Positions 12,701 through 45,055 of a stretch of 64,000 bases of DNA are shown in pieces. How positions within the stretch are numbered: the stretch's first letter is position 1; every line of letters starts with the position of its first letter. Source of the DNA: Torpedo marmorata (Eukaryota); the NCBI GenBank assembly GCA_977017645.1, contig OZ360220.1, forward strand, positions 191,766,001 to 191,830,000, written 5' to 3'. A model generated the notes under the pieces. The model was given only the letters and a program-made list of their open reading frames with translations. It was not told where the DNA came from and made no database searches. The translations under genes and the position numbers were made by a program.

Positions 12701-14294
12701 TGTGGGACCCCGACTCCATGGCCACCCTCTGGCTTACCGGTACGATCGTTAGGCCACAGCGTTGAACAGTATCCGGGTGGATAAAGCTCTCAGTGCTGCC
12801 AGTGTCGAATAAACACGTTATCTTGTGTCCCTCGACCAGTATGTCCATCATGGATCTTGTCAGCTGGTGGGGAACGTTCTGGTCGAGGGTGATGGATGCC
12901 AAAGTTGGGGTGAAGTCGTCTTGGTCCGAGGTCTTTAAAAATGGCCGCTCCCGTGGGTTGCACGTGTCGCTGGAGGTCTCTGTACAAAATGGCGGCGCCG
13001 GAGGTGCAGGAAGTAACGAGGTACTGCTCTGAGATGGCGACGCCGGAAGTGCCAGCATGAAAGATGGCCGCTTCCACTCCTCACACGCGGTCGGTGCCAG
13101 AAGTGCCAGCATGAAAGATGGCCGCTTCCACTCCTCACACGCGGTCGGCGCCGGAAGTGCCAGTCTGCAAGATGGCCGCTCCCATCTCTCGCACGCGGCA
13201 CTACTCGGGCCCGCGCGCGGCTTGGAGCGGCAGGCCTTCGCGAAGTGGCCTTTCTTGCCGCAGTTGGAACAAGTCGCGTCGCAGGCCGGGCAGCGTTTCC
13301 TCGTATGCTTGTCGAGCCCGCAGAAGTAGCACTTCTCGGGCTCGCGATTAACAGCTGCGGCGGTGAGAGTAGCGTCGGTAGCGGTCGGGTCGCGGGTAGC
13401 GGCGGCAACAATCGGGTCGCGGGCCACAGCGGCCACAGTTGGATCGGTGGGGCTGGGGAACGGGACGATCCACGCATTAGCCTGGGGGTCCCGCGTCTGC
13501 ATCGCGTCGGAGTTCTGCAGCGCGGACTCCAGCGTGCGAGCCATCGCCACCGCAGAACGGAGATCGAGGTCAGAGTGCTCCAGCAGTCGCTGGCGTACGT
13601 ATACTGACCTCATCCCCATAATAAAGGTGTCCCTCTCCAGCAGATCAACAGGTTGTTCTTCAGTCAGCGCTTTACAGGCGCACGCTCGCACTAGGGACTG
13701 GATGTCCCTGACAAAGTCCACTATTGACTCCCCGGCCCGCTGTTTTCGTAACGATAGTCTATACCTCGCGTAGACCTCATTAACAGGGGTCACATAGATC
13801 TTTCTCAGTGCCTCCATCGCCTCGTCGTACGTCCCGCATTTCCAGATGGTTGAATACAACCGAGGGCTTACCCTAGATACTAGGACCTCTAGTTTCTGCT
13901 CGTCGCTTTCGGCCTTGACCTCCTTTGAGAACGATCGGAGGCAGCGTAGCCAGTGTTCGAATGCATGGCCAGCATCAGGAGCTAAAGGGTCGATGTCCAG
14001 TCGGTCCGGTCGGAGGGCACCTTCCATAATTTTTCTTATGTGTATTAAATTGATATGCCTATCAATTAGCACTCAAGAGACTATGAGAGGGTTAACGAAC
14101 CATAGGCTTTAATACACATAAAACAGACCAACAGTAGACCTGCAGATCTCGACCGGACTGTGGGCGGAGCAGTGGCACACAGGCCTTTATTCAGTTGAGA
14201 AAAGGGGAGGGATTACCTGGACACCCAAAGGAGGGGAGAGGAGTCGCCGGGACAGACAGCAGTACATACAATACACAAACAGTGGTTTACCACA
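9710..14294 (-). mobile_element. Ty3/Gypsy LTR retrotransposon B, intact
   Basis: 244-bp LTRs 9710-9953 and 14051-14294, no difference seen by eye; TSD GCCCA (9705-9709, 14295-14299). Confidence 0.97.
10038..14027 (-). CDS. Gypsy B single gag-pol polyprotein (~1329 aa)
   Basis: Open frame from ATG 14027: zinc knuckles, PR LFDTGS, RT YLDD, RH ESDASD, IN H..H..CxxC and D(SIDF)-D(HSDRG)-E(VERE). Confidence 0.93.
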   Translation of the reverse strand: MEGALRPDRLDIDPLAPDAGHAFEHWLRCLRSFSKEVKAESDEQKLEVLVSRVSPRLYSTIWKCGTYDEAMEALRKIYVTPVNEVYARYRLSLRKQRAGESIVDFVRDIQSLVRACACKALTEEQPVDLLERDTFIMGMRSVYVRQRLLEHSDLDLRSAVAMARTLESALQNSDAMQTRDPQANAWIVPFPSPTDPTVAAVARDPIVAAATRDPTATDATLTAAAVNREPEKCYFCGLDKHTRKRCPACDATCSNCGKKGHFAKACRSKPRAGPSSAACERWERPSCRLALPAPTACEEWKRPSFMLALLAPTACEEWKRPSFMLALPASPSQSSTSLLPAPPAPPFCTETSSDTCNPRERPFLKTSDQDDFTPTLASITLDQNVPHQLTRSMMDILVEGHKITCLFDTGSTESFIHPDTVQRCGLTIVPVSQRVAMESGSHTTDIRGACVANIVVQGTEYRQFSLFIMNRLCAPVLLGLDFQSHWQSVTMQYDGPFPAITVANHQFLDSTPETTCGLSTLKISPPSLFVNLTPDCRPVATKSRRYSAEDRAFIKMEVQRLLQEGIIEKSNSPWRAQVVVVKGVKSRMVVDYSQTINRFTLLDAYPLPRIAEMVNQIAQYRLFSTIDLKSAYHQLPIRREDHSYTAFEADGRLFQFLCLPFGVTNGVSVFQREMDRIVDHYKLKATFPYLDDITICGYDRQDHDNNLRRFLQAAKALNLTYNKEKCVFGTTRLAILGYVVENGVIGPDPERMRPLLELPLPTNPRALKRCLGFFSYYAQWVPNYADKARPLVKSTAFLLASEARKAFDLIKGDIARATMHAVDEETPFQVESDASDFALAATLNQAGRPVAFFSRTLQGPEIRHSAVEKEAQAIVEAIRHWRHYLAGKHFTLLTDQRSVAFMFNNQQRGKIKNDKIMRWRIELSTYNYDIMYRPGKLNEPSDALSRGSCASAQVDRLHALHDDLCHPGITRLFHFVKSQNLPYSLEEVRTMISSCRVCTECKPQFYRPDKAQLIKATRPFERLSIDFKGPLPSTNRNVYFLNIIDEYSRFPFAIPCPDTLAASTIKALRQVFTLFGFPNYIHSDRGSAFMSEELRQFLLTRGIATSRTTAYNPRGNGQVERENATVWKAALLALKSRGLPVSRWQDVLPEALHSIRSLLCTATNVMPHERFFSFSRRSNTGTALPAWLTSPGPVLLRNHLRSSKYEPAVQRVQLAHANPQYAYVVFPDGREDTVSIRDLAPAGAPEEPLDGQDHSLRPLPIPSSTTSDQAPSMEPTILPSHPAPQEEATALPSSPAPQPAPRVPRAPQPAPRVLRRSQRRAKPPDRLDL

Positions 14295-17200
14295 GCCCAG
14301 AGTCACTGAGTGTCCATGAATCGAGTCAAGTCTGCCCTAGAGCAGGTAATCCACCCAGACCAGCCCTGCACAGTTCCGGGCAGGAAAATTTCTGACTGCC
14401 TCACGCTGCTCAGAGATACTATCGCCTACGTGCTGGACAGGGGGGTGGACACCTGCCTAGTCAGCTTAGACCAGGAGAAGGCTTTCGACTGGATATTGCA
14501 CACATACATGATGGATGTGCTCACCAAAATGGGCTTTGGGGAGGGAATCCAGATTAAACTGCTCTACATGGACATCCGTAGTGCAGTCCAAATCAATGTA
14601 GAAACAGATAGCTTCCCCATCAAGTCTGGAGTCAGGCAGGATTGCCCACAGTCTCTAGTCTTATTTGTGCGCTGCATAGAGCCCTTTGCTGAATTTATCA
14701 GGAAGGACGAGGGCATAAGAGGAGTGACGTTGCCAGGCAGTGGAGGCACAAGGCCTCCCTGTAAATGGATGATGTCACCATCTTCTGTTTGGACACACGA
14801 TTGGTCCACAGACTGATCAGCATCTGCAGCCATTTTGAGTCTGCATTGGGCAGCAGGGTAAACCGGAAGAAGAGCGAGGCAATTCTCTTCGGTAATTGGT
14901 CCGACCGGTCCACCATCCCCTTCAACGCCAGATCTGACTAGCTGAAGGTGTTGGGAATCTGGTCTGGAAGGGCCGAGGCATGCAACAAAAATTGGTTGGA
15001 GCAGATTGCAAAGGTCCACCAGAAATTGGGTCTGTGGGCGCGGTGCTCCCTCTCAATAACAGGGAAGAACCTTGTCATCAGTTGCGAGGTGCTCTCGGTA
15101 CTGCTGTACGTGGTGCAGGTATGGCCCATCCCCACACCATCGCCCTGGTGGTCACTAGAGCTGTCTTCCGGCTCATATGGGGATCCAAGATGGAAAGGGT
15201 CCGAAGGGTTGCCATGTACAAGTCGCCAGACAACGGGGGCAAGGGCGTACCTAATGTGGCCCTCATCCTGATGACCACCTTTATGCATCAGGCTGTGCGT
15301 GGAAAAAGTACGAAGGCACCAAGTGCCGCTATGCGCTGAGGTTCTACCTGTCCCAGGTGTTGCGAAGGTTGGGCCTGGCCCCGTTTCCTTGCAAGCCCCA
15401 ATCAGCTGGACTTTGCCACACCACCTATCCTTCGTGGAAAAGTAATTCCAGGCAAATAAGTCCATCAGACAATGGCCAGCACAGAACATCTTGCAGATAT
15501 TGAGAGAAGAGGACTCGATGGATACTATGGGGTGGTTCCCTGAACAAACTGACCAGGTCATCTGGCGGAATTCCTCATCGCCAGTGCTCACTAACAAACA
15601 CCAGGACTTGACCTGGCTGGCGGTGAGAGAAACCCTCCTGGTCAGATCTTTCCTGTACAACAGAAATATCGCCCACAGCGCACCTTGTCCCCAAGATGAC
15701 TGTGGTGGAGTGGAGACAGTCGCCCTCCTCTTTGCAGAATGAAGATTGCTAAAAGTGTGTGGAGTAGGATGCAAGGGTCCTTGTCACAGTTCATCCCCAG
15801 TCGCAGCGTGACAGAAGACTCTCTGATTTATGGGCTGTTCCCAGGGATGCACACAGAGTCAGACATCCAGAGCTGCTGGAAGATCGACTCGGTGAAAGAT
15901 GCCCTATGGTCTGCCCGAAACGTTGATCTTTCAGCACACTAAGATGTCAGCGAGAGAATGCTGCCGACTGCCACATTCCAGGCTGCAAGAATATATGCTG
16001 AGGGACGCACTTGAGGCTTGGTGCAGCCAACGCAAGGGCATTGTAGGGAAGGACCACAGTCTAGAGTCCTTCTGTCATCAGGCATCGAGGGGCTGAGTCT
16101 GAAGAGAAGTCCTTCAAAGAACAGCTGGTGGAGTAACGACAAGATGGCACAGTCGTGGCAATAGTGTAAATAGAGAATGTATGTAACAATGTACATTGAT
16201 GAAAATGTATGGATATGACACTAAGGATGTGAAAAGAGTATGAATGGTTTTGTTTTTTGTAAATAATTTATTGTGTTTAAAGTTTGTTTTTGGAAAAAAA
16301 AATAATGCAATAGACCTCAGCAGCCCTCTGGGAGAAGAGTTCCAAGTTTCCAAAACCCTTTGTGTACTGTTGTGTTTCCTAGCATCACTCCTGAATGACC
16401 TGGTACAGGTGGTAACAAATAGTGTCCCTTATGATACTCTCCACCCTGCCTTCACCAGAGCAAATAGTTTCTCGCTGTCAACCCAATTAATTTCTGAGAT
16501 TATTTTAAACGTCATGAAGAGACATCCCTTGCTGTCCCATACTTGAGGTATTACAACATATTCTGTGAAATCTATCTTTGTAAATTAACCCTTTCATCTC
16601 CTCTATCATTCTGGTCTAGCTGTGGAATAATAGAGCAATTGTGCTGTTATTATATTGCTCAGCTTTTTATTTTTGCAGATATTGATGAAGTCAAAATACA
16701 CAAATGGCTGGCTATGTTCTTTTTCTCTCCATGAAAGTAGCAGCACTCTTGAGACTCATAAATAGACAAAATCAACGTACAAGAAAAGACCATTTGTCTC
16801 ATTGAGTCTTCCATCCATTTCATGTACATCATCGACTACAGCTCAGCTTTCAACACCATCATACCCTCAGTGCTGGTCAACAAGCTTCAAAACCTGGGCC
16901 TCTGCACCCCTCTCTGCAACTGGATCCTTGACTTCCTCATCGAAAGACCACAGTCAGTACGAATTGGAAACGACGTCTCCTCCTCACCGACAATCAACAC
17001 AGGTGCACCTCAAGGATGGTGTTCCTGGCAGAGGCAATAGCATTTAAGAAAGAAATACTCAATTCCTAGCCCACCAAGCTGAGCTATTGAAACCATTCCA
17101 TCTGGTCACCATGTTTAGCTCCTGACTTCTGGAATTCTTTCCTTACACTTTCCACACTCTCCTCCTTTTCAGTTCCATTTTTAAACCTACTTCTTTGATC

Positions 17201-18784
17201 AAGATTTTAGTAGCATATGTTAATATCTCTGCCATTCTCAGAGCCAAAGGTGTCAAAACAGGTAATGTCAATGTAAGACTCAGTAAAACCTTGTTACCGC
17301 TGATGTATGTGCTTAGAATATATATTTTCCTGGTGATCCTGGTTAGAATCATAGACTTGTGCAATGTAGGAAGTGGCTACCTCACTCATCATGACTGTAC
17401 TAACTATTTGAAATTCTACATGTTATTCAGAATCAGAATTTATTGTCATGAACATGTGTCACGAAATTTGTCATTTTGCGGCAGCTTTACAGTGCATATA
17501 TTGCTATAAATTAGATTTTAAAATAAACAAATTAGCGCAAAATAAGAGAAAGTGAAGTAGTGTCTGTGTTTCATTGTCCATTCAGAAATCTGATGACAAA
17601 AGGGAAGAAGCTGTCCTTGTGCCGCTTTGGTGTTTGTCTTCAGGCTCCTGTACCTCCTTCCTGATGGTAGTAGTATGAAGAGGGCATGAACAGGGCCGCG
17701 AGGGTCCTTGAGGAAAGAGGCTGCTTTCTTAAGACACCATCTCTTGTAGACGTCCTCAATGGAGTGAAGACTGATGCCCATGATGGCGCTGGCCAGTTCA
17801 CAACTCTCTGTAGTTTTTTTCCTGTCCTGTGCATTGGCACCTACTGTATGTACTAGACAGTGATGCAACCAATCAGAATGCTCTCGACGGTACACCTGTA
17901 GAAATTCACAAGAGTCTTTGGTGACATACCAAATTTCCTCAAAATCCTCACGAAGTATAGCTGCGGGGAAGCGTTCTTCATGATTGCATCGACATGGAGC
18001 CCCCAGGACAGACCTTCAGAGATGTTGACACCCAGGAATTTGGTTCTTAACCCTTTCCACTGCTAACCCCTCAATAAGGACTGGTTCTGTTCTCCTGATT
18101 TTCCCCTCCTGAAGTCCACAATCAGCTCCTTAGTTTTGCTAACGTTGAATGCAAGGTTGTTGTTGTGACACAACTCAACTAGCTGATCAATCTCCCTCCT
18201 GTGCGCTTCCTCATTGCTGTCTGTGATTCTGCCGACAACCGTGGGGTCATCGGCAAATATGTAGACAGCATTTGAATTGTGCCTAGTCACACGCCCGTGG
18301 GCATAGAGCGAATAGAGCAGTGGGCTAAGCATGCATCCTTGAGGTGCACCTGTGTTGATTGTCAGTGAGGAGGATACGTTGTTTCCGATTCGTACTGACT
18401 GTGGTCTTTCGATGAGGAAGTCATGGATCCAGTTGCAGAGTGGGGTACAGAGGCCCAGGTTTTGAAGGTTGTTGACCAGCACTGAGGGTATGATGGTGTT
18501 GAAAGCTGAGCTGTAGTCGATGTACATGTTGCTGCTGTCGAGGTGGTCCAGAGCTGAGTGAAGAGCCAGTGATATTGCATCTTTTATGGAGCGATTGTGA
18601 TGGTAGGTGAATTGCAGTGGGTCTAGATCTTTACTTAGGTACGAGTTAATTCTGGCCATGGCTAATCTCTCAAAGCATTTTATCACAGCCAGATGGCATT
18701 AACATTGACTTTTCTGCTTTCCACTAAACCTGCTTGTCGTTCCCTTCCCCTCCCCCCTCACCTGTCCTTCCTGCTTTTCTCCAC

Positions 18785-19210: not shown

Positions 19211-22209
19211 TATTTCTACCTTTGCTACATAAAAGACACTGTTTGACCTGCTGAGTTTCTCCAGCATTTGTGTTTTTTACTTCAATCACGGTGTCTACAG
19301 ATTTTCGTGTTTTACTTATCACAGTGGACGTGAGTGCAACTGGGCGATATTCATTGAGGCAGCTCACTCTGCTCTTCTTGGGCACCGGAATGATTGATGC
19401 CCTTTTGAAGCAGGTGGGAACCTCCAACTGCAGCAGTGAGAGATTGAAAATATCCGTGAATACTCCAGCTAGTTGGTTGGCACAGATTTTCAGCACCCTG
19501 CCAGGTACGCCATCAGGGCCTGATGCCTTGCGAGGGTTTACCCTTTTTGAAAGATGTTCTGACATTTGCCTCAGGGACAAATATCAGAGGGTTGTCAGCT
19601 TCTGCAGGGATTCTCATTGATACCATGGAGTTCTCCTTTTCATAGCGAGCATAAAAGGTGTTCAGCTCATCAGGTAGTGAAGCATCACAGCTACTTATGG
19701 TGTTCGGCATTGCCTTGTAGAATGTAATGGTCTGTAATTCCTGTATCTGACTCTGTCTCTAGCTTCCCTTGGAATTGCCTCTTTGCTGATGAGATGGCCT
19801 TCCGTCGGTCGTACCTGAACATCCTGTAGAGATCTGGATCACTGGACTTAAACGCCATCAATCTTGCCCTCAGCAGGTTGCAAAACTTTTGATTCATCCA
19901 CGGCTTCTGGTTGGGATACTCACGGTATGTACACGTGGGCATACTCTCATCCACGCAGGTTTTGATGAAGTCAGTGACCGCCGTGGCACATTCATTCAGG
20001 TTTGAGGATGAGTCCTTGAATATGGTCCAGTCCACTGATTCAAAGCAGCCCTGCAGGCGCTCCTCTGCCTCCCTCGACCATACTTTCACCGTCTTCACCC
20101 CTGGTGCTGTAGTCGTCAGTCTTTGATGGTGTGCCAGGAGAGGAACTACAGCCAGGTGATTAGACTTGCCGAAGTGCGGTCGTGGGATGGCTCGGTAGGC
20201 GTTCTTCATGGTGATGTAGCAGTGGTCAAGTGTGTTTCTCAGGTAATATGTTGGTGATAGTTTGTCAGCGACTTCTTCAGGCTGGCCTGGTTGAAGTCCC
20301 TTACAATGATCAGAAAAGCATCAGGGTGCCTCTCATGACTGCTGATTATAGTGCTCAGCCCCTCCAGTGCCAGACTGATGTTAACGTGGGGCGGAATGTA
20401 CACAGCAACCAGGATGATGGCGGAGAATTCCCTCGGGAGATAGAATGGACGACACTTGATCGTCAAATGTTCCAGGTCAGGGGAGCAGGAGTGGCACATC
20501 ACCGTCACATTTGTGAACCACGATGAATTGATAATGCAGCAAACGCCGCCGCGTCTGCCTTTACCTGACGCCAGTTGATGGTGAAGCCCATGTGTGCTGT
20601 GTCCGGAATGCTCTCATTCAGCCATGTCTCTGTGAAGCACATCACACAGAAATCCCTGATGTCCCTCTGTAATCTGGCTCTGAGTTCATCCAGTTTATTT
20701 TCCAAGATTGTACGTTGGCCAGGAGGATGGTAGGGAGTGGGGGCCTCAGAACCCAGCATCTTAGTTTAACCAGTAACCCCCCCTCTGCATCCGCACGATC
20801 GGGTCTTCTTTAAATAGTCCATGCGTCGGCTATTCGAGTCACCCGCAGTCTTTAAATGGCCGGTGGTTCAGCTGTTTGCATCTCCCACAGTATTTAAATA
20901 GCCCATGCATCGGCTTTTCTGATTGCCCGCAGTCTTTGAATGGCCCGTGCGTCGGTTGCTCGTGCACTGGCTGTTTGAATCTCCCCCGGTCTGCTGGAGT
21001 ATGCCGCTCCCGACAATTGCAAGATCTACAGACGTTCTTAGTACAGCGTTACTTACTGGTAAGTTGGTTTCTGTGGCTGTGGGTTTGATTTGTAATAGTT
21101 CTGAACAGGAATATATGATGATTTCTATTGGAGTGGCACACTGTAAGGCGCCATCTTTTTTTAATTATTCCTGTTCTTGCACTGTAAAATATATCCTATT
21201 ATCGAGATTTTAAATAAACATCCCACTGGATCTGCTTTCACTGCCTTTTCAGCAGTGCGAATTGGAAACAACGTCTCATCCTCACTGATTATCAACACAG
21301 GCGCACCCCAAGGATGCGTGCTTAGCTCACTGCTCTACTCGTTATACATCCATGACTGTGTGGCCAGGCACAATTCCAATGCCATCTACAAGTCTGCCGA
21401 TGATACCACAGTTTTCGGCAGAATCACAAACGGCAATGAGGAAGCGTGCAGGAGGGAGATAGATCAGCTCGTTGAATGGTGTAACGACAACAACCTTGCG
21501 CTCAACGTCAGCAAAACCAAGGAGATGATTGTGGACTTCAGGAGGAAGTCAGGGGAACACGACCCAGTCCTCATCGAGGGCTCAGTAGTGGAGAGGGTCA
21601 AGAACTTCAAATTCCTGGGTGTCAACATCTCCGAGGATCTGTCCTGGAGCCTCCACGTTGATGCAATCACAAAGAAGGCTCGCCAGCGGCTATACTTTGT
21701 GAGGTGTCTGAGGAGATTCGGTATGTCACCGAAGACTCTTGTAAACTTCTACAGGTGTACCGTGGAGAGCATTCTGGCTGGTTGCATCACTGCCTGGTAT
21801 GAAGGCGCCAACTCTCAGGACAAGAATAAACTCCAGAGGGTTGTTAACTCGGCCTGTGACATCACAGGCACCAGACTTCACTCCATTGAGGACATCTACA
21901 CGAGATGGTGTCTTAAAAAAGCAGCCTCTGTCCTCAAAGACCCCCACCACACAGGCCATGCCCTCTTCACTCTGCTACCACTGGGAAAAAGGTACAGGAG
22001 CCTAAAGTCGAGCAGACAACGGCACAAGGACAGATTCTTCCCCGCTGCCATCAGATTCCTGAATAATTAATGAACCAAAGACGCTGACTTACTTTTCGTG
22101 TAAGAGCCGTAGGCTCGTTAACTTACCGTTGTTGCGGCGCTCCGATGTCTCGTCGGGCCTTGGAGCGCTTGCGTTGTTCTGTGGGCCGTCGTCGGCCCGT
22201 TCTTTGATA

Positions 22210-22261
22210 TGCGCATGCGCGGGAGTGCCGACGGGCGCATGCGCAGTATGGAGTGACGTCA
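22210..22261 (+). promoter_or_regulatory. Two NRF1-type palindromes and a CRE in the BEL LTR (repeated in the 3' LTR)
   Basis: TGCGCATGCGC 22210-22220, GCGCATGCGCA 22235-22245, TGACGTCA 22254-22261, in a CpG-rich segment. Confidence 0.55.
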
Positions 22262-23126
22262 TTGTGCGCGTGGGAGGCTGGGAGTTGTAGTATGCGCGGG
22301 GTAGGATGCGCAGAGCCATTAGAGAGAGAGAGAGAAGGAAAGGAAAAGATGTATGGAGGGTGAGTCTGGTCTCCACATCTTTATTGACCGTTTTATATAG
22401 TTTTATAATCGTTTTATAATGTTTTTATAACTTCAACATCATCTACAGTGTTTCATATCGTTTTGGAATTGTTTAAGGAATAATTTAAAGGAACTCATCA
22501 TACATTGTTTACAAGAACTGTTTATATTAAAGTCATTGAAGATTACTGCAAGTCATGTGTGAAAATAAAGGTTTTGAACATATTGGACTTTGTTAGTAAA
22601 TTAATTAAAACGCGTCAAAAGCAAGGACCACACTTAGCCTCCAGGTGACTATTGGTGGAGCGAAGTCACCGTTACTTATAGTCAATAAAGTGCTGGCTGT
22701 TTGGAACAGAAGTTTGAAGGAAAGAAGATAGAAAAAACTCTCTGTGCTTTGGACTGATATAAAATGGTGGCCATTTTGAAGATGCCTCGAGTTGGGGGCA
22801 GTTTGTAATCTACATCCATCTGCCATGAGTAACAGCCAGAGAGGGATTTAAAGCTTCAAATCTTATAATAAAGTGTCCTATAAATACGTTGGAGAAACCA
22901 TTTTTGGAAAATCAGTGATATTAGTGACGGATGTTGTGGTTGAAACTCGTTTGTGGATTGCAGCACATTACAGTCATTTGAAGTGGTAGGCATAAGTCTG
23001 TGGACTCCTTCTGTGTATCTTTAGCAAGTAAGAACACAGATTGGAATTGCTGCCGCTGGTCCATTGGGGACTGTTGTTTGGCTAGTGTTGTGTATGCTTG
23101 AAGGAAAGAGGAACAAGACGAGTAAA

Positions 23127-26100
23127 ATGGCCGCAGCAGCCACTGATACAGCAGCTACTGATATATCAGCAGCTGACGCAGCAACCGCTGATGTTGCTGT
23201 TGAGGACCAACGTATTGAAGACATGAAGGTTGCGGATATTAAAGAAGAATTGAAGCGACTGAAAAGGGACATAAGTGGAAATAAAAAGGTTCTTATCGAA
23301 AGATTGAAGCTGGCAAAGGATGAAGAGGCAGCTTCATTAGTGGAACAAGAAGATAACTTGGAAATGGCTGAAATTGTGTCAACAAATGATGAACAATTTG
23401 AATTGGATAAAGAGGTAAGTATGAAGACAACATATGAACTGCAGGACGAAATACAAGCAAGTGACAGTGTCTCAAATGCTGAAAGCAGGAGAAGCAAAAG
23501 AAGTTCTGGTTCGAGCTCCAGAGTTTCTCGTACTTCAAGTTCTGCGTCGTCACGTACAAAGATTGATGTTAAATTGGCCGCTCTTCTTGCACAACAAAAA
23601 ACGCTTAAGGATAAATATATTTTGGAAGAAGAGGAGGAGCAGCTAAGACAAAAGGAGGAGCAACTAAAGGAGCAGCTAAGACAAAAGGAGGAGCAGCTAA
23701 GACAAGAGAAGGAGCAGCTAAGGAAGAGAAAAGAACTGCAGGAGCTGGAAGCAAACATTGCTATTGCCAAGGCAGAAAAGAAAGCAATAGAAGGCTCAAT
23801 GGTATCTGGTGCTAGCAGTAAATTATCTAAATTGTCTGATAATAAAAGGTCATATTTAAAAAAGGAGTCACAGGAAAAGAAACCAACCAAAAGGATAGAT
23901 ATTTTAGAACCAAGGATACAAAACTTACATATACAAGGACAAACCTTTCAAGAGCATATTGGTATCGAGTCATATGTACCAATGATAACATCTGAAAGCA
24001 AAGCTGCGGATTGGGTTCGGTCGAACGAAGTAAATTCTTTGTTATATGAGTCAAGCATCAGAAATGTGGAAGAAACTATACCAGTAAGGTATCCAGATAC
24101 ATTGCATGCAACAAGAAACGGTGAACAGAGCAATGTATTGTCGTCCAAGGAAATACAAAATGAAATTGCTGCATCATTGTTTCAGTTACAGTCTCTCTCT
24201 TCTTTACCCAAGAAAGAGATACAAACTTTTGATGGTCATCCACTTCAATATCAATCATTTATGAGATCTTTCAAACGCAATATTGAAGATAAATGCCAAG
24301 ATCGTGATGAATGTCTTTATTATTTGGAAATGTTTACAAAGGGACATCCAAAAGAACTGGTAAAAAGTTGTAATCAAATGTCTTCAGGAAGAGGATTAGA
24401 CAAAGCTAAGGATTTATTGGAACAATATTTTGGCAACAAGCATCGAATTGCTTTAGCTTATATGGATAAAGCTCTTAAATGGACATCAATAAAACAAAAT
24501 GATGTAAAGGCTTTGCAAGAATATACTTTGTTTTTAAGAGGATGTTGTAATGCTATGGAAGAAATCGATGGTATTCGTGAGCTTGATGTGCATAGTAATA
24601 TGCGAATCATTTTAGAAAAATTACCTTACAAGGTATGGGATAGATGGAGAAATTTGGCTTGTGATTTACAAGTAAATTATGGTCGAAAAACTACCTTAAA
24701 GGATTTGGTAAATTTTCTTGAACGACGGGTGTACGTTGAAACGGATCCACTATATGGAAATACCAGAGATAATTCAATGGGCAAAGATGTAAGAAAGTCT
24801 AATTCACAATCTAGTCCGAAAGTGAAAAGGAGTACTTTTGCTACTAATGTGCAAGTTATAAGTAAAGAAAATGACAAAGTAAATAAGGAAAAGGAAAGTT
24901 TGCCTAATGAAAGGAGTTGTTTGTTCTGTAAAGGTGGACATGCTTTGGAAATGTGTTTACGATTGGAAAAGAAGGAACATAAGGAAAGGATCGCTTTCTT
25001 AAAGGAAAATGGAATATGTTTTAGCTGTCTGTGTAAAGGGCACATCAGTAAAAACTGTGAGAAGCGAATTAATTGTAACATATGCAATTTGAAACATCCT
25101 AGAATTTTGCATATCCATAACAGAAACAAGGAATTGGAAAAGGAGCAAACAGAAACAAAGGAAACAACAGAAAATAATGTTATAACCTCGGTTCAGACAA
25201 GTGGTCTTACTGGGGCCGGGGTGAATAACTGCAAACTTTCAATAGTGCCTGTACAAGTCAAGGCCAAGAAAGGGGATGCAATAGTAAAAACATATGCATT
25301 TCTAGACCCAGGTAGCACTGCATCTTTTTGTACGGAAGGACTAATGAATAAACTTAATATTCAAGGAAGAAAATCAAGAATTATGTTAAAAACCATGGGA
25401 CAAGAAAAGGTTGTTGAAACTAATATTGTTTCAGGCTTAGAGGTTGCTGGATTAGATGACAAAAGGTTTTGTGATCTTCCAAGTGTATATACTCAGAAGA
25501 CTATGCCTGTGAACGAAGGAAATATTCCTCGTCAAAGTGATATCCATCATTTAGCTTATCTGTGGAAGGTTTATTTACCTGAAATTAATTCTGAGATAGA
25601 AATGCTGATTGGTTCAGATGTGCCAAAGGTTTTGGTACCAAAAGAAGTAATAGAAAGTAAAAGGAATGGACCTTACGCTATCAGAACCATACTTGGTTGG
25701 GCAATCAATGGACCAATGGAAAGAAATAATGATATTGATCAGGCACAGGTAGCGATAAATGTTAATAAAATTTCAGTTGAGAAAGTTGAAGAGTTAAGAG
25801 AAGAGCAAAAAACCGTGAATAAGAAAATTACTTATGAAGAAAAGAAAACAGATCAATGTAAAAATAAATCAGTGGTATTTAAAACAACATTGAAGAAATT
25901 AATTTCGTCAGAAATGGATGAAAGTGAAGTATTAGAAGATGTTGCAAATAATACTGTTGATCATTCATGTGTAATTGAATCAAATACAGGAATAAAACAA
26001 GTGACTGAAAACAAATCTGAATGTAGATTTTGTAGTTCAGAGATTACAATTGACAAAGCTAATGAAGAATTATTGCAATGTGATGTAAAAATGGAGAACA

Positions 26101-26852
26101 CAGAAAATTGTGCTGATGGAATAAAGAATAATGATTCAGAGAACAAAATGTTGAAAGGAGAATTGGAAATATTAAATAAGCAAGAAAACAGTAAACAGAA
26201 AGATTTAATTGTAAGTAAAACTCGCAAAGTCAGAAAGCGGAAGAAAAGAATAACTGCTGAAGAAATGAATACAGTTATTGAGGAAAGAGATTCAGCATTA
26301 TCAAAATGTAAAAGGTTGGAGGAAGAGATTAATGTTTTGAAAGAGAACAAGTTATTGGTTAATAACACAAAACAGTTGACTTTAAAAACCAATCAAGAAT
26401 GTAAATTGAATGTTCAACAATTAACAATGCAGAAAGAATGTGATATTGCATTGCAGATATGTAACAAACAAGATGAAGAAATTAAAAAATTTCAAGTTTG
26501 TCGCGACAGGATTGACAATGGAAATATCAATGTACCATATGATATTTTGACTTCAGATCAAATTATTAATTTCTCGGAAGGAGCTGAGACTGAATTGAAA
26601 GTTGCAAAATTGGATTTAGAATTGCAGGAAAGAGCCATAGAAACCAGAGTGGTTAAACAGACCTGTTTAAAATCGAAAGAATCAGATAAATATTCAAATT
26701 CTAATTCTAAGAGTTTAAATTCTTCACATGAGAAGTGGAATACTGAAGAAAGGAATAAAGTGAAACGACGTGCTGAAGAAGTGCCTTGTGTTAAATTCAA
26801 AAGAAAAACTGTATCTATTTTATCTGAGGAGGATTTGAGGTTTACTGGTTAA
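23127..26852 (+). CDS. Chimeric SAP-Gag-protease-coiled-coil (MIPOL1-like) polyprotein, ~1241 aa
   Basis: ATG in aaaATGG context at 23127; SAP-like IEDMKVADIKEELKRL..SGNKKVLIERL; BEL gag LPKKEIQTFDG; three Cys/His knuckles; PR AFLDPGS; then RITAEEM..EERDSALSKCKRLEEE. Confidence 0.85.
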   Translation: MAAAATDTAATDISAADAATADVAVEDQRIEDMKVADIKEELKRLKRDISGNKKVLIERLKLAKDEEAASLVEQEDNLEMAEIVSTNDEQFELDKEVSMKTTYELQDEIQASDSVSNAESRRSKRSSGSSSRVSRTSSSASSRTKIDVKLAALLAQQKTLKDKYILEEEEEQLRQKEEQLKEQLRQKEEQLRQEKEQLRKRKELQELEANIAIAKAEKKAIEGSMVSGASSKLSKLSDNKRSYLKKESQEKKPTKRIDILEPRIQNLHIQGQTFQEHIGIESYVPMITSESKAADWVRSNEVNSLLYESSIRNVEETIPVRYPDTLHATRNGEQSNVLSSKEIQNEIAASLFQLQSLSSLPKKEIQTFDGHPLQYQSFMRSFKRNIEDKCQDRDECLYYLEMFTKGHPKELVKSCNQMSSGRGLDKAKDLLEQYFGNKHRIALAYMDKALKWTSIKQNDVKALQEYTLFLRGCCNAMEEIDGIRELDVHSNMRIILEKLPYKVWDRWRNLACDLQVNYGRKTTLKDLVNFLERRVYVETDPLYGNTRDNSMGKDVRKSNSQSSPKVKRSTFATNVQVISKENDKVNKEKESLPNERSCLFCKGGHALEMCLRLEKKEHKERIAFLKENGICFSCLCKGHISKNCEKRINCNICNLKHPRILHIHNRNKELEKEQTETKETTENNVITSVQTSGLTGAGVNNCKLSIVPVQVKAKKGDAIVKTYAFLDPGSTASFCTEGLMNKLNIQGRKSRIMLKTMGQEKVVETNIVSGLEVAGLDDKRFCDLPSVYTQKTMPVNEGNIPRQSDIHHLAYLWKVYLPEINSEIEMLIGSDVPKVLVPKEVIESKRNGPYAIRTILGWAINGPMERNNDIDQAQVAINVNKISVEKVEELREEQKTVNKKITYEEKKTDQCKNKSVVFKTTLKKLISSEMDESEVLEDVANNTVDHSCVIESNTGIKQVTENKSECRFCSSEITIDKANEELLQCDVKMENTENCADGIKNNDSENKMLKGELEILNKQENSKQKDLIVSKTRKVRKRKKRITAEEMNTVIEERDSALSKCKRLEEEINVLKENKLLVNNTKQLTLKTNQECKLNVQQLTMQKECDIALQICNKQDEEIKKFQVCRDRIDNGNINVPYDILTSDQIINFSEGAETELKVAKLDLELQERAIETRVVKQTCLKSKESDKYSNSNSKSLNSSHEKWNTEERNKVKRRAEEVPCVKFKRKTVSILSEEDLRFTG

Positions 26853-26924
26853 CGTTTTGACTCGGATTGTGAAGATGGAAGAACTTTAAAGAGACATTGT
26901 GATTGTTATGGATGGTTCAACTTC

Positions 26925-27072
26925 AAGAAATTCCTGGTTACTTGGAAAAGATTATTGAGACTTTTCAAGACAAAGAGGACTTGTGCGTCAAGTGCGAATT
27001 AAAGCTAAGACTGGTTTTCTAAACAGACCTATTAACCAGGTCTGTCTTTTGTTGGAGACAGAGGAACTTTGA
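26925..27072 (+). pseudogene. Frameshifted remnant of the BEL integrase C-terminus
   Basis: Reads across shifts as RNSWLLGK/IIETFQD/KRGLVRQVRIKAKTGFLNRPINQVCLLLE, typical of the BEL pol end. Confidence 0.75.
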
Positions 27073-28123
27073 TAAATATAAACTGACTTTATTTGTTGTT
27101 GTATATTTCACAGGTTACAGACTTTTGTTGAATCAGAGTTATGGTAAACTCTAGATTTATGAAGAAGGAAGAAAGAAGATTTGTATTGTTTTGAATGTTA
27201 TGGTTATTATTATTTATAGTGTAATTATTATTCAAGACATTACGTCTAATTATAATAATTAGGGGCCGGTGTAAGAGCCGTAGGCTCGTTAACTTACCGT
27301 TGTTGCGGCGCTCCGATGTCTCGTCGGGCCTTGGAGCGCTTGCGTTGTTCTGTGGGCCGTCGTCGGCCCGTTCTTTGATATGCGCATGCGCGGGAGTGCC
27401 GACGGGCGCATGCGCAGTATGGAGTGACGTCATTGTGCGCGTGGGAGGCTGGGAGTTGTAGTATGCGCGGGGTAGGATGCGCAGAGCCATTAGAGAGAGA
27501 GAGAGAAGGAAAGGAAAAGATGTATGGAGGGTGAGTCTGGTCTCCACATCTTTATTGACCGTTTTATATCGTTTTATAATCGTTTTATAATGTTTTTATA
27601 ACTTCAACATCATCTACAGTGTTTCATATCGTTTTGGAATTGTTTAAGGAATAATTTAAAGGAACTCATCATACATTGTTTACAAGAACTGTTTATATTA
27701 AAGTCATTGAAGATTACTGCAAGTCATGTGTGAAAATAAAGGTTTTGAACATATTGGACTTTGTTAGTAAATTAATTAAAACGCGTCAAAAGCAAGGACC
27801 ACACTTAGCCTCCAGGTGACTATTGGTGGAGCGAAGTCACCGTTACTTATACTTTTCGTGCACTAATATTTATATTTTTTATAGTAATGTTGTAAGATGG
27901 TTATAATATGAATGTTTGCACTATGATGCTGCCGCAAAACACCGAATTTCATGACTTGTTCATGACAATAAATTCTGATTCTGATTCTTGTGTGTGATCA
28001 GCCTCTGACATGAAAGGTTTCTCATCTCACACTTGTCAATTTGGCAATTTACCTTGAGTCTATGTCCTCTGATCATCATTAAAGCTCTCTGATTCCATGT
28101 GATACTTGAGACAAGGACAGGCC

Positions 28124-31100
28124 TGATACGCCCATCAATAACTCCAAAAGACTGGAAGTTACACAAGAACTGAAAGGCTTTTATTAGCTACAGAATGGAT
28201 CTACATTCGTGCTGGTGATCTGTCCCGGACTGGGGAAGGAGTTGTGGCACAATGGCCTTAATTCAAGGGGGGTAGTGGGAGGAGCCACCGGGACAGTCAG
28301 CAGGACATGTCCAAACCTATCACCAGCCCACAATACATATACAGTGGTTTGCCACATTCACCCCTCCTTTTAAAAGAGTCCAGCGGGGTGAAGTGAACAC
28401 TACAACACATCTAAAATATATTACAGTCATAGATCAAGTCGATCAGACGGTCGAGTCTGACGTCGTGATCGGCGCAGTACTTGTGATGGGACAGGCAGCG
28501 GAGCCACCTCCTGCCTGGTTTGGGGTACCGGAACGTCGGGTGACGGCGAAAGTGCTGGTGAATGTGGTGTCGTGGTGGGATCGAATGGTGCATCTTGTGT
28601 TTGCACGGGGGTAATCGTAACAAGGGGGTGTTCGAGGGCGGGTTCCGGTGCTCCTGCGGGCGCCAGGTCCCGGATGGAGACGGTGTCTTCCCGCCCATCA
28701 GGGAAGACCACGTAGGCGTACTGGGGGTTGGCATGGGCTAACTGGACCCTCTCGACCATTGGGGCGTATTTACTGCTCCTGATATGTTGGCGGAGCAGCA
28801 CTGGCCCTGGGGACGTCAGCCATGCTGGTAGGGTAGTCCCGGTGGTCGACTTCCTGGGGAAAGAAAAGAGTCTCTCATGAGGAGTCGCGTTGGTGGACGT
28901 ACATAGCAGGGACCGGGAATGGAGGGCCTCGGGAAGGACTTCCTGCCAGCGGGAGACTGGTAATCCTTTAGACCTGAGTGCTAAGAGAGTGGCCTTCCAG
29001 ACCGTGGCGTTCTCTCTTTCCACCTGTCCGTTACTCCGAGGATTGTAGCTTGTGGTCCTGCTAGTGGCGATACCCTTTGCCAGCAGATATTGTCGCAGCT
29101 CGTTGCTCATAAATGCGGACCCCCGGTCACTATGGATGTAGCAGGGGAAACCGAACAGGGTGAAGAGTTTGCGAAAAGCTCTTATGACAGAGGTGGCCGA
29201 GGTATCGGGGCAGGGAATGGCGAAAGGGAACCGCGAGTACTCATCAATAACGTTGAGGAAGTACAAGTTGCGGTCGGTGGAGGGGAGGGGACCCTTGAAG
29301 TCGACGCTGAGTCGCTCGAAAGGGCGGGTCGCCTTAACTAGCTGTGCCCTGTCAGAGCGGTAGAAATGCGGTTTGCACTCCGCGCAGACCTGGCAGCTGC
29401 TGGTCATCACCCTGACCTCTTCTAGGGAGTACGGTAGATTACGTGCCTTCACAAAATGAAACAGCCTGGTAACTCCGGGGTGGCAGAGGTCACAGTGGAG
29501 GGCATATAACCGGTCGATCTGTGCGCTAGCGCATGTCCCCCGGGATAGAGCATCGGAGGGCTCATTGAGCTTCCCGGGCCAGTACATAATATCGTAGTTG
29601 TCGGTGGAGAGTTCGATTCTCCACCTCAGGATTTTGTCGTTTTTGATTTTACCCCGCTGCTGGTTGTTGAACATAAATGCGACTGAGCGCTGGTCAGTCA
29701 GCAGGGTAAACCTTTTGCCGGCAAGATAGTGCCTCCAGTGCCTGATAGCTTCCACTATGGCTTGGGCCTCTTTCTCCACCGCTGAGTGCCGAATTTCTGG
29801 GCCTTGAAGGGTACGGGAGAAGAACGCCACCGGTCTTCCTGCCTGGTTGAGGGTAGCAGCCAGTGCGAAGTCGGACGCGTCACTCTCTACTTGGAAGGGA
29901 GTGGACTCGTCCACCGCGTGCATTGCTGCTCTAGCAATGTCCCCTTTTATGAGGTCGAAAGCCTCACGTGCCTCCGCTGCAAGGGGAAAAGTGGTGGACT
30001 TGACTAGGGGGCGGGCCTTGTCTGCATAATTAGGGACCCATTGGGCGTAGTATGAAAAGAAGCCCAAGCACCTTTTGAGGGCTTTGAGGATGTGGGGAAG
30101 CGGTAGTTCCAACAGGGGGCGCATGCGGTCGGGGCCGATGACCCCGTTCTCCACGACACACCCCAGGATAGCGAGTCGGGTGGTCCCGAACACGCACTTA
30201 TCCTTGTTGTAGGTGAGATTAAGTGCTTTGGCTGCCTGGAGGAACTTCCGGAGGTTGTTGTCGTGGTCCTGGCGATCGTGACCACAGATAGTGATATTGT
30301 CCAAGTACGGGAAGGTGGCTTTTAGATTGTACTGGTCCACCATCCTGTCCATCTCCCTCTGGAAGACGGATACCCCATTTGTGACCCCAAAGGGGACGCG
30401 CAGGAAATGATAGAGCCTGCCGTCCGCCTCGAAGGCGGTGTAAGTGCGGTCTTCTCGGCGGATGGGGAGCTGGTGGTAGGCAGACTTGAGGTCTATGGTG
30501 GAGAAGAGCTTATATTGTGCTATCTGGTTAACCATATCCGCAATGCGTGGCAGGGGGTACGCGTCAAGCTGCGTGAACCTATTGATAGTGTGGCTGTAAT
30601 CCACCACCATCCTATTTTTGTTCCCGTTCTTCACGACGACCACCTGGGCCCTCCATGGACGTGCTCGGTTCAATGATCCCCTCCCCGAGTAATCGCCTCA
30701 CCTCTGACTTGATGAATGCCCTGTCCCCTGCGCTATATCTCCTGCTTTTGGTCGCCACAGGTTTACAGTCAGAGGTCAGGTTGGCGAATAGCGACGGGGG
30801 CGGGATCTTGCGGGTGGATAGACCGCAGGTAGTGTGGGGTGTGTTTTTGAGGAACTGGTGATTACCGACGGTAATCGATGGGAGGGGCCCGTCATATTTC
30901 ATGGTAACGCTCTGGAGGTGGCTCTGGAAATCGAGGCCCAGTAGTACAGGTGCACACAGTCGGGGCATGACCAATAGCGTGAAGTCCCGGTATTCCGTGC
31001 CCTGTACTACTATCGTCGCCACACAACCCGCCCGGATGTCTGTTGTGTGTGACCCGGAAGCCATGGCAACCCTTTGGCTTACCGGCAGTGTCACGAGGCC

Positions 31101-32565
31101 ACATCGCTGCACTGTGTCGGGGTGGATAAAGCTTTCAGTGCTGCCTGTGTCGAACAGGCAGTTTGTCCTGTGTCCCTCGACCAGAATGTCCATCATTGAC
31201 CTCGATAGTTGATGGGGTGCACTCTGGTCGAGTGTCACTGACGCCAGTGTAAGGTCGCTGTCTTGATCCGACGTCGCGATGGAGTGGCCGCTGTCCCGGG
31301 GTGGCGGCACCCAGTGTCGGCTCGCCGGCGCGGAAGAAGATGGCCGTCCCCATGGATCGCACGTGTTGGGGCCGGGTCGGTAAAATGGCGGCGCCGGAAG
31401 TGAAGCGTCGGGTTGATAAATTGGCGGCGCTGGAAGAGACGAGGCCAAAGATGGCTGCCCCCATTCCTCGCACATGTTGGCAGCGGCGGGTGGGTAGGAC
31501 GGCGGCGGAAGTGACGTCACCGAAGATGGCCGCCCCCGGGTCTCGCACGCGGTGCTGCTCGAACCCGCTCTCGGCTTTGAGCGGCAGACCTTGGTAAAGT
31601 GGCCTTTCTTACCGCAGCTGGAGCAGGTCGCTTCGCGGGCCGGGCAACGTTTTCGGGGGTGCTTCTCAAGCCCGCAGAAATAGCATTTCTCGGGCTCGCG
31701 GCTGATGGCAGCAGTAGTCGGGTCGCTAGCAGGGTGGGGGGTCGGTGGCATCCACGGGGCCTGCTGGAGATCGCGCGCTTGAATGGCTTCTGAGTTCTGC
31801 AGCGCGGCCTCCAGCGTGTTGGCCAGTTCGATCGCCGAACGGAAGGTCAGGTCAGCTTGTTCCAGCAGTCGCTGGCACACGTACACTGACCTGATCCCCG
31901 TGACAAAGGTGTCTCTCCCTAGCAACTCTGCATGCTGCTCGGCCGTCAGCGCCCTGCAGTCGCACGCCCGCACGAGTGTCTGTATGGTCCGTACGAACTC
32001 CGCGATCGACTCCCCGGGCCGCTGCTGCCGCGTCGTTAGCCTGTGCCTCGCGTATACAGAGTTCACAGACCGTATATACTGACGTTTCAGTGCATTCATC
32101 GCCTCCTCGTAGGTCTGCCCATCGTGGATCATTGAGTAAACTCGTGGGCTTACCCTCGAGAGGAGGACCTTGAGTTTTTCCGCGTCGTCCCGCACCTTGA
32201 TCTCCTGTAGGAACGACTCAAAACAGACTAGCCAGAGTTCGAAGGCGTTACTGGCGTCCGATGCCTGCGGGTCGATGTCCAGTTTGTCTGGTCTCAGAAT
32301 GCTCTCCATTTTTACAGTGTAGCTAATAAAATTGATACGCCCATCAATAACTCCAAAAGACTGGAAGTTACACAAGAACTGAAAGGCTTTTATTAGCTAC
32401 AGAATGGATCTACATTCGTGCTGGTGATCTGTCCCGGACTGGGGGAGGAGTTGTGGCACAATAGCCTTTATTCAAGGGGGGTAGTGGGAGGAGCCACCGG
32501 GACAGTCAGCAGGGCATGTCCAAACCTATCACCAGCCCACAATACATATACAGTGGTTTACCACA
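28124..32565 (-). mobile_element. Ty3/Gypsy LTR retrotransposon C (same family as A), disrupted
   Basis: 233-bp LTRs 28124-28356 and 32333-32565 (~5 differences); TSD AGGCC (28119-28123, 32566-32570). Confidence 0.95.
28427..32309 (-). pseudogene. Gypsy C gag-pol with a frameshift near 30670
   Basis: ORFs 30612-32309 and 28427-30673 collinear with B/D; small in-frame deletions (GPDRMRP, LHSRSLL); RT YLDN. Confidence 0.9.
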
Positions 32566-44911: not shown

Positions 44912-45055
44912 NNNNNNNNNNNNNNNNNNNNNNNNNNNNNNNNNNNNNNNNNNNNNNNNNNNNNNNNNNNNNNNNNNNNNNNNNNNNNNNNNNNNNNNNN
45001 NNNNNNNNNNNNNNNNNNNNNNNNNNNNNNNNNNNNNNNNNNNNNNNNNNNNNNN
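44912..45055. other. Assembly gap (N run)
   Basis: Direct reading. Confidence 0.99.

Follow-up and report, generated by a model that had tools for sequence, protein, structure and literature searches.

Acutely transforming retroviruses carry host cDNA that is fused in frame to gag and replaces pol; they depend on a helper, and the captured host protein is functional and selected. In animals, LTR-mediated retroposition places fragments of spliced mRNAs within LTR elements (Tan et al. 2016, PMC5131818), and one locus may combine several parent genes (a mouse case has four genes plus an Alu); a BEL case has been described in mosquito, and such retrocopies can undergo secondary rounds as a non-autonomous element (PMC5131818). 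The maize element Bs1 carries exonic pieces of three host genes between its LTRs, with switch points common to all copies (cited via PMC5131818). The mouse circRFWD2 pseudogenes, 33-42 in number, are diagnosed by a reversed exon junction, lack poly(A) and have flanks enriched in LTR sequence, and their mechanism was left open (Dong et al. 2016, PMC4897178). In wheat, RLG_Sabrina_SA and RLG_WHAM have kept gag-protease, are missing reverse transcriptase (RT) and integrase (IN), reach thousands of copies and have evolved jointly with a partner that has pol (Wicker et al. 2021, PMC9744471).

Here, we have analysed a stretch of 64,000 nucleotides from Torpedo marmorata (the window; contig OZ360220.1 of GCA_977017645.1), which contains a BEL/Pao element at 22099-27851. 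The element is almost certainly a gag-protease-only BEL/Pao whose pol has been swapped in frame for spliced pieces of BRCA1, MIPOL1 and Elongin A, and whose gag is headed by the SAP exon of SLTM. Its ingredients are precedented singly (maize Bs1, mouse circRFWD2 pseudogenes, LTR-mediated retroposition); their combination in one element was reported nowhere in the literature searched, in which subscription journals were thinly covered and Repbase and Dfam lay outside the search.

The following comparisons refer to the available portions of the cited reports. Like the cases of Tan et al. (PMC5131818), the element holds spliced partial host mRNAs of several genes within an LTR element and has spread non-autonomously, but those cases are single or low-copy whereas this family counts tens of thousands; a circular template, a long-lived lineage and a frame kept amid residue drift are unmentioned in the available text of that report ('circ' has 0 occurrences). 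Exonic pieces of several host genes between LTRs and shared switch points are common to Bs1, a plant element with 1-5 copies as against tens of thousands here, for which the available text mentions neither a back-splice nor an exchange of backbone. The reversed exon junction, the absence of poly(A) and the LTR association recall the circRFWD2 pseudogenes; here, by contrast, the junction lies within an LTR element whose limits are defined and is read in frame with gag-protease; the partner family is known, and copies are approximately a thousand times more numerous. RLG_Sabrina_SA and RLG_WHAM resemble the element in their gag-protease without RT and IN, high copy number and pol-bearing partner, but they are Gypsy elements of plants, and their extra coding segments are, in the text available, untraced to spliced host genes and not one-frame fusions. 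In-frame host cDNA in place of pol and helper dependence are shared with gag-onc retroviruses, from which the element differs in that its captured residues drift, env is absent and it is inherited through the germline at high copy.

Architecture of the element

The features of the element, with the evidence for each, are as follows.

22092..22098, no strand: left target-site duplication (TSD), 7 bp (sequence; family norm 5 bp)
22099..22680, + strand: 5' LTR, 582 bp, ends TG...TA (TGTAAG...CTTATA), common to pol-bearing relatives
23089..23328, + strand: captured SLTM exon 1 plus first 16 nt of exon 2 (SAP Pfam match, host exon match, exon junction; 5' limit approximate)
23329..25802, + strand: BEL gag (DUF1759, Cys-His motifs) and aspartic protease (Pfam; 93-95% identity to pol-bearing sister family)
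25803..26200, + strand: BRCA1-derived piece (ray BRCA1 match, host exons on G000:C61)
26201..26655, + strand: MIPOL1-derived piece, exons f (part)-g-h followed by the earlier exons b-c (host gene on G000:C40)
26651..26863, + strand: Elongin A-derived piece, with the ORF stop inside it at 26850-26852 (PF06881, PDB 8oev_M, host exons on G000:C41)
26891..27072, + strand: out-of-frame integrase-end remnant, DUF5641 region (nucleotide match to pol-bearing relatives)
27257..27269, + strand: putative polypurine tract (PPT), purine-rich and adjoining the 3' LTR (sequence; same tract in pol-bearing relatives)
27270..27851, + strand: 3' LTR, 582 bp (LTR pair comparison)
27852..27858, no strand: right TSD, 7 bp (sequence)

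The ORF at 23127-26852 is uninterrupted and encodes 1241 aa, in agreement with the sequence-only reading of this DNA, which had described a 3.7-kb frame that is still open and a pol replaced with no RT, RNase H (RH) or IN left. A Pfam search of the ORF (the release searched holds no MIPOL1 model) detected SAP, DUF1759 and a weak protease match, and no RT, RNase H or integrase; a full BEL polyprotein, 50% identical over 801 aa, matches no further than residue 894. The surviving frameshifted IN tail proposed by the same reading was also recovered, as 26891-27072 aligns, out of frame, with the region around the integrase end in pol-bearing relatives. As in BEL/Pao elements generally, gag (DUF1759, Cys-His motifs) is followed by protease in one ORF, and two LTRs with short inverted ends are flanked by a TSD, which is 5 bp in 14 of 20 young copies (counted by script) and 7 bp in the window copy; the ends are TG...TA, not TG...CA. 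The order PR-RT-RH-IN (Pao-type RT, RNase H Peptidase_A17, integrase) is missing from the window element and present in a sister family, and the window element is thus a non-autonomous derivative. No TGG start is visible after the 5' LTR in either the cargo family or the pol-bearing one.

Host genes behind the captured pieces

The SLTM-derived stretch includes some 5' UTR, the start codon (23127) and the SAP domain (23211-23312; PF02037, E 2.8e-8). Its neighbours in protein comparison are of the SAFB/SLTM type, and the SLTM host exon (G000:C68:47494943-47495130) is 80-88% identical to older copies, as against no nucleotide match for SAFB (G000:C54), which was rejected as the SAP donor. One splice junction, between SLTM exons 1 and 2, is kept in the element, and the SLTM-headed gag is common to the element and the pol-bearing sister family of the same genome. 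SAFB/SLTM proteins carry an N-terminal DNA-binding SAP domain, and the SAFB family binds A-rich RNA of transposons, suppressing L1 as well as, in mouse and fly, LTR elements (Ilik et al. 2024, PMC10901741); unlike the proteins described in the available part of that report, the element carries the SAP exon only, without the RRM or ER-rich parts. No SAP-gag fusion in an LTR retrotransposon was found among the papers listed by the literature search, as judged by titles and abstracts.

The first 130 codons of the tail are BRCA1 and the last 65 are Elongin A. An older copy matches ray BRCA1 with E 2e-75, and the window BRCA1 piece still shows 48% amino acid identity (pairwise E 1e-34); it keeps one exon junction, at 25917/25918, whereas older copies span three. 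The identity of the Elongin A piece comes from older copies (PF06881, E 2e-16; PDB 8oev_M, E 4e-38), whose stretch includes what we take to be a BC-box-like motif. A second Elongin A paralog (G000:C25) was rejected as donor, being 68-76% identical as against 91-98% for the C41 gene. Spliced junctions lie at host exon ends in all three genes (3 in BRCA1, 4 forward in MIPOL1, 4 in Elongin A), and each was recovered from at least 7 and up to all 20 of the older full-length copies compared. The pieces are intronless and partial, are flanked by discontinuous LTR element sequence and have no poly(A), which is the configuration of an LTR-mediated retrocopy.

The sequence-only reading had described the capture as MIPOL1 alone; MIPOL1 is indeed there, but the account was incomplete, with three genes in the pol gap and a fourth heading gag. 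The ELEIL motif near 26160, which that reading had assigned to MIPOL1, is derived from BRCA1 according to host BRCA1 exon and protein matches. A weak MIPOL1 alignment of 25950-26190 was likewise discarded when the stretch proved to be BRCA1.

A reversed exon junction in the MIPOL1 piece

The in-frame MIPOL1-like segment was borne out by protein comparison: the last 383 aa match MIPOL1 (E 1.6e-29), rays being best, and the named entries are nearly all MIPOL1 among the 120 matches listed. KLDLELQE (about 26605) is also MIPOL1, and its position, previously regarded as out of order, is explained by a back-splice junction. At 26506/26507, the donor of host exon h runs directly into the acceptor of exon b, which lies upstream in the host gene; in the tandem NAGNAG acceptor it is the first AG that is used, so that the junction includes the 3 nt. 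This junction is present in 28 of 29 older loci (at most 3 mismatches in 24 nt).

An exact donor-to-upstream-acceptor junction points to a circular RNA template, and a circular MIPOL1 RNA is, on the evidence of the exon arrangement, the probable source. Host RNA capture as originally proposed holds in that spliced RNA, with exon junctions spanned, stands in place of pol, but the template looks circular rather than a linear mRNA. The reversed order could also have arisen from linear RNA, through trans-splicing, an exon-repeat transcript or a tandem duplication since lost, or from a template switch that chanced on exon ends. Such origins would suit a captured piece that falls short of a complete turn of the 780-nt circle (it lacks exon e, the greater part of d and the beginning of f), with no rolling-circle repeat to prove a ring, and no circMIPOL1 report was found in the literature searched. 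They are nevertheless rather improbable, given a junction exact at both splice sites down to the 3 nt of the tandem acceptor, the absence of exons outside the circle (flanking exon ends in 0 of 20 older copies), and a 320-kb host stretch that today holds one copy of each MIPOL1 exon and no second.

Copies, partner family and mobilisation

The search returned 36,318 candidates, and approximately 34,000 copies are estimated by local density. LTR pairs are mostly 98-99.8% identical, so the family is young; the window pair has 1 mismatch over 582 bp, in keeping with the recent mobilisation suggested earlier. At least 150 copies lie on many contigs with separate TSDs, and contigs from public runs bridge protease-BRCA1-MIPOL1 (X2, 25539-26443) and BRCA1-MIPOL1 (X4, 26102-26475); an assembly chimera, whose probability is negligible, is refuted by these independent copies and runs.

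The sequence-only reading had presumed mobilisation in trans and proposed looking for an autonomous BEL with the same LTR ends. Such a family was found in the same genome: it shares the LTR ends, is 93-95% identical in gag-protease and encodes RT, RNase H and IN. It is therefore very likely that the element is copied and inserted by enzymes of this sister family, and conserved gag-protease together with a pol-bearing partner of shared ends is the pattern of a semi-autonomous element. In the protease tree, young cargo copies are nested among pol-bearing ones, and a single cargo clade was rejected (p-AU 0.0004) in an AU test run after the first tree had been seen and with one pol-labelled sequence (L082, on a long branch among old cargo copies) dropped beforehand. 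From this topology, the cargo appears to have been transferred at least once to another, newer backbone from the pol-bearing lineage. The younger backbone switch has 6 nt of shared sequence, and at the original switches (pol to BRCA1, BRCA1 to MIPOL1, MIPOL1 to Elongin A) shared sequence is short or unclear.

Selection on the open frame

The cargo has diverged from the host genes by 20%, with 197 substitutions in 334 codons (74/64/59 over codon positions). Its dN/dS is 0.83 (0.57-1.25), an interval spanning 1, as against 0.32-0.36 for gag-protease (over the whole gag and protease stretch at 23329-25802, values are 0.32-0.53); by part, the BRCA1 piece has 0.82 and the MIPOL1 piece 1.01, with 58 amino acid changes versus 58.2 expected. 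Zero stops were seen versus approximately 10 expected (1 and 0 of 20,000 simulations), and all eight deletions (8/8) are multiples of 3. The lack of stops, the in-frame deletions and the absence of clear amino acid constraint together indicate selection on the frame and not on the protein, so the open frame appears to be what is selected. Purifying selection on a host protein, as in gag-onc viruses, is not seen (dN/dS 0.83; permutation P 0.088 for the whole cargo), and the gag-onc analogy drawn earlier fails in this one respect, since the captured residues drift near neutrally and no working host protein is kept. Some amino acid constraint may exist in the Elongin A part (permutation P 0.026) and in one 60-nt MIPOL1 window (2 changes versus 11.7 expected, scan P 0.02). 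The deletions are also a less strict sign of selection on the frame to the extent that multiples of 3 may be favoured in coding-like DNA through short repeats.

The fusion protein might instead need its tail, for example if a MIPOL1 helix aided Gag-protease pairing or packing in place of RT-IN, or if the host fragments acted on host partners. A frame of at least 1230 aa is kept in 91 of the 150 best young copies (ranked by identity to the window element's protein), the best-kept 60-nt window codes for the core MIPOL1 helix, and the weak Elongin A constraint and the presumed BC-box-like motif of the older copies would fit as well. This is unlikely in view of the near-neutral MIPOL1 and BRCA1 ratios, of the silent sites in the conserved window, which are conserved too, and of the young family, in which all three pieces have suffered large deletions and the Elongin domain is gone completely.

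An accidental frame, with a few lucky masters amplified and searches favouring open copies, is very improbable: bursts from few masters are common and the copy search was ranked by identity to the window protein, but the window element was not picked by that search, the 20% change from the host built up over a long lineage without a stop, and intermediate copies, located by their position in MIPOL1 introns, share the frame, three of the four having no stop and the fourth a single one.

The history and the role of the cargo could be as follows. Host RNAs would have been co-packaged in particles and joined by template switches of the reverse transcriptase, and later switches would have trimmed the cargo and placed it on a newer backbone taken from the pol-bearing lineage. 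Gag and protease would come from the element itself and the missing copying enzymes from the sister family, while the cargo would most likely serve as translatable filler: with ribosomes continuing until approximately 420 nt before the 3' LTR, the RNA would escape the decay that an early stop sets off, in which case selection acts on the frame but not on the residues. This RNA-stability reason is slightly more likely than not. We assign a probability of roughly 70% to the whole explanation, namely a pol-less BEL/Pao with spliced pieces of four host genes, a circular MIPOL1 template, a helper in trans and a frame selected as filler. A bolder alternative, in which the chromatin-binding SAP exon of SLTM is a working Gag head of the BEL/Pao lineage and the parasite tail (BRCA1, circular MIPOL1, Elongin A) is translated as a functional particle part or a decoy for host partners, would make this the first circular RNA to account, in the form of protein-coding cargo, for approximately 3% of the genome of a vertebrate; we regard it as doubtful.

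Significance for genome biology and annotation

These observations suggest that a host circular RNA can become permanently established in a genome and be copied there on a massive scale. By placing a back-splice junction in a defined LTR element that has a helper, they offer a concrete route for the mechanism left open, in the available text, by Dong et al. (PMC4897178). Thousands of dated copies form a natural experiment that separates selection on an open frame from selection on a protein, and the Gag of an active vertebrate retrotransposon family is headed by a domain derived from a family of host transposon suppressors. In the T. marmorata genome, fragments of BRCA1, MIPOL1, Elongin A and SLTM number in the tens of thousands and are a hazard when genes are annotated, reads mapped and circRNAs called. 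Summed contig depth, which is not a copy number, is much higher over the captured part of the BRCA1 exon than over the rest of it.

Structure of the element and its captured cargo

A BEL/Pao element in the window carries host-derived pieces in place of pol, and the observation of a sequence-only reading, which had described pol as swapped for an in-frame MIPOL1-like segment, is real.

Features of the element
22099-27851, LTR element, two LTRs of 582 bp each with 1 mismatch between them
23127-26852, ORF of 1241 aa, the sole ORF of the LTR element

Near-identical LTRs and a long open frame are both confirmed, as is the claimed lack of enzymes beyond the protease: a domain search of the 1241-aa ORF matched SAP and DUF1759 and, weakly, a protease, but neither RT nor RNase H nor integrase, and the alignment with a full BEL polyprotein (50% over 801 aa) stops at residue 894. 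In addition, the last 383 aa match MIPOL1 in a protein search (E 1.6e-29; 194 significant proteins, rays best). The MIPOL1 assignment stands for the middle of this tail only; the flanking stretches are BRCA1 before it (E 2e-75; pairwise E 1e-34 for the window copy) and Elongin A after it, and a pol stub and the three pieces form one continuous frame.

The BRCA1 piece was spliced from four host exons (G000:C61, 90-100% identity) and the Elongin A piece from five (G000:C41, 91-98%), while the window versions of the three host pieces retain about 80% identity. Eleven forward junctions are each present in 7 to 20 of 20 older copies, which were chosen on MIPOL1 and several of which are truncated. 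Contigs from public sequencing runs bridge the protease-BRCA1-MIPOL1 and BRCA1-MIPOL1 junctions. Among the proteins compared, those nearest to the MIPOL1 and BRCA1 exons of the host genome are from rays, which makes a ray the likely host. Two Elongin A-like genes exist in the genome (C41 and C25; L173-L181), and the C25 gene was rejected as donor, only the C41 gene having been captured. One host BRCA1 exon (L182, G000:C61:25488548) lacks 9 nt that are kept by the element and by Narcine, so capture predates the host deletion. The first ~175 residues of a Narcine BRCA1 database isoform (P0211) match transposon sequence of this genome, and its N-terminus is likely to be an annotation fusion.

Back-splice junction in the MIPOL1 piece

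Searched with ray MIPOL1, an older subfamily (85-91% identical) aligns with residues 437-553 followed directly by residues 295-385. Host MIPOL1 was mapped across 320 kb of G000:C40 as single-copy exons, lettered b to i in order, whereas the order in older copies is part of f, g and h, then b and c, and finally the beginning of d. Where h meets b, the joint combines the exon h donor with the first AG of exon b's tandem acceptor, which accounts for three extra host-acceptor bases in the element. This joint is present in 28 of 29 older loci with at most 3 mismatches, and neither of the neighbouring exons outside the b-h circle (780 nt, 260 codons) was found in any of 20 full-length older copies. 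The earlier proposal of host RNA capture is upheld by the spanned exon junctions; the out-of-order MIPOL1 part corresponds to the exact h-to-b joint, a junction of the kind by which Dong et al. recognise circRNA-derived sequence (PMC4897178).

According to the template-switch model as outlined by Tan et al. (PMC5131818), co-packaged host RNAs may have been copied one after another into the element. The literature already describes LTR capture of several host genes (Bs1 and a mouse four-gene retrocopy, PMC5131818), LTR-flanked circRNA pseudogenes (PMC4897178) and gag-protease elements with partners (PMC9744471). None of the papers found in a literature search describes this BRCA1/MIPOL1/Elongin A BEL element, a self-propagating LTR family that carries a back-splice junction, or a BEL gag headed by a SAP exon.

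Copy number and age

A protein search of the 6.2 Gb genome with the MIPOL1-like part gave, as a rough figure, 36,318 candidates, the best 150 of which were all 100% identical and spread over many contigs; frames of at least 1230 aa were present in 91 of these 150. LTR pairs obtained for 19 of 20 fetched copies with such frames were 98.4-99.8% identical in 18 cases and 92.6%, owing to gaps, in one. The copies are dispersed, and a script called 5-bp TSDs in 14 of the 20; the flanking repeat of the window element is 7 bp (22092-22098 and 27852-27858). Within 730 kb around six host genes, four cargo copies were detected, all inside MIPOL1 introns (L063, L070, L078 and L079-L080 on G000:C40; two flank exons e and f), and none in the 410 kb fetched around the remaining five genes. 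Scaled up, this local density roughly corresponds to ~34,000 copies (Poisson range ~9,000-87,000), or ~3% of the genome.

Pol-bearing partner and backbone exchange

A pol-bearing BEL family with the same LTR ends, the likely helper for mobilisation in trans, was found. An RT query returned 6,845 candidates, with 4 of the 150 that were scored in frames of ~2000 aa or longer, and 12 fetched pol-bearing copies have LTR ends, leader and purine tract in common with the window element (LTR pairs from 11 of 12, 96.3-99.8%). The closest are 93-95% identical to the window element through gag-protease as far as 25808, and the likeness resumes at 26891; older cargo copies are only ~70-78% alike in these parts. 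In a protease tree (61 rows, keeping 12 of many near-identical young copies; midpoint root), the old cargo copies group together and the young cargo copies are nested among pol-bearing copies. Since a single cargo clade was also rejected (p-AU 0.0004, one long-branch row dropped), the cargo moved onto a pol-bearing backbone at least once; the switch is marked by 6 nt of shared sequence. The ladder of pol-bearing copies under midpoint rooting suggests that the direction was from cargo element to pol-bearing backbone.

The LTRs of the window element end in TA rather than CA, as in both the cargo and the pol-bearing family, and neither family has a TGG-type primer site after the LTR (22675-22720 in the window). 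A database BEL polyprotein, P0126, has an RT ~90% identical to that of the pol-bearing family but a different N-terminus without SAP; named relatives are mostly from bony fish.

Selection on frame and residues

The frame of the cargo is conserved. No stop arose after 197 substitutions (~10 expected; 1 and 0 of 20,000 runs), and each of the eight deletions that set it apart from older copies has a length divisible by 3 (24, 24, 120, 81, 195, 3, 3 and 111 nt), the chance of which is 1 in 6,561 if independent. Of 50 young loci examined, among them some that were fetched twice, 44 share the stop within the Elongin A piece.

Between host and window, dN/dS over 337 cargo codons is 0.83 (0.57-1.25; dN 0.218, dS 0.263). 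For gag-protease the ratio is 0.32-0.36 when the window element is compared with 8 older copies and 0.34-0.53 when it is compared with 12 pol-bearing copies. Composition-aware permutation gave 0/2000 for gag-protease and P 0.088 for the cargo (BRCA1 0.24, MIPOL1 0.52, Elongin A 0.026), and conservation is unusually high in one 60-nt stretch of the MIPOL1 piece, 26236-26295 (scan P 0.02). Nonsense-mediated decay acts on transcripts with long untranslated ends. An open tail could spare the element such an end and thereby allow escape from decay, which would explain selection on the frame alone. The main rival explanation is that the tail has a protein role.

SLTM exon heading gag

Gag opens with a SAP domain of the SAFB/SLTM type, which matches host SLTM exon 1 (G000:C68) at 74-88% in five older copies, start codon and part of the 5' UTR included; the match continues over the exon 1-2 junction, and the pol-bearing family carries this SAP as well. 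Host and window differ at 14 of 34 residues, where base composition predicts 18.3 (P 0.024; uncorrected pN/pS 0.36), a weak indication that the domain is kept. The protein family of SLTM suppresses transposons (PMC10901741). Further along gag, tandem repeats of EEQLRQK-like units (23629-23747) differ in unit number between copies.

Other features of the window

Remaining features
4987-8366, 10038-14072, 28427-32396 and 40005-44180, minus strand, four Gypsy-type LTR coding regions (protease, RT, RNase H, integrase)
48567-50618, plus strand, RT-domain frame of 683 aa, surrounding stretch only 26% G+C
21165-22070 and 27858-27990, LINE-type RT remnant, with the cargo element inserted just behind its 3' end
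16800-18500 and 57879-58769, related LINE-type remnants
44912-45055, N stretch of 144 bases

In two of the four Gypsy-type regions the frames reach 1344 and 1391 aa.
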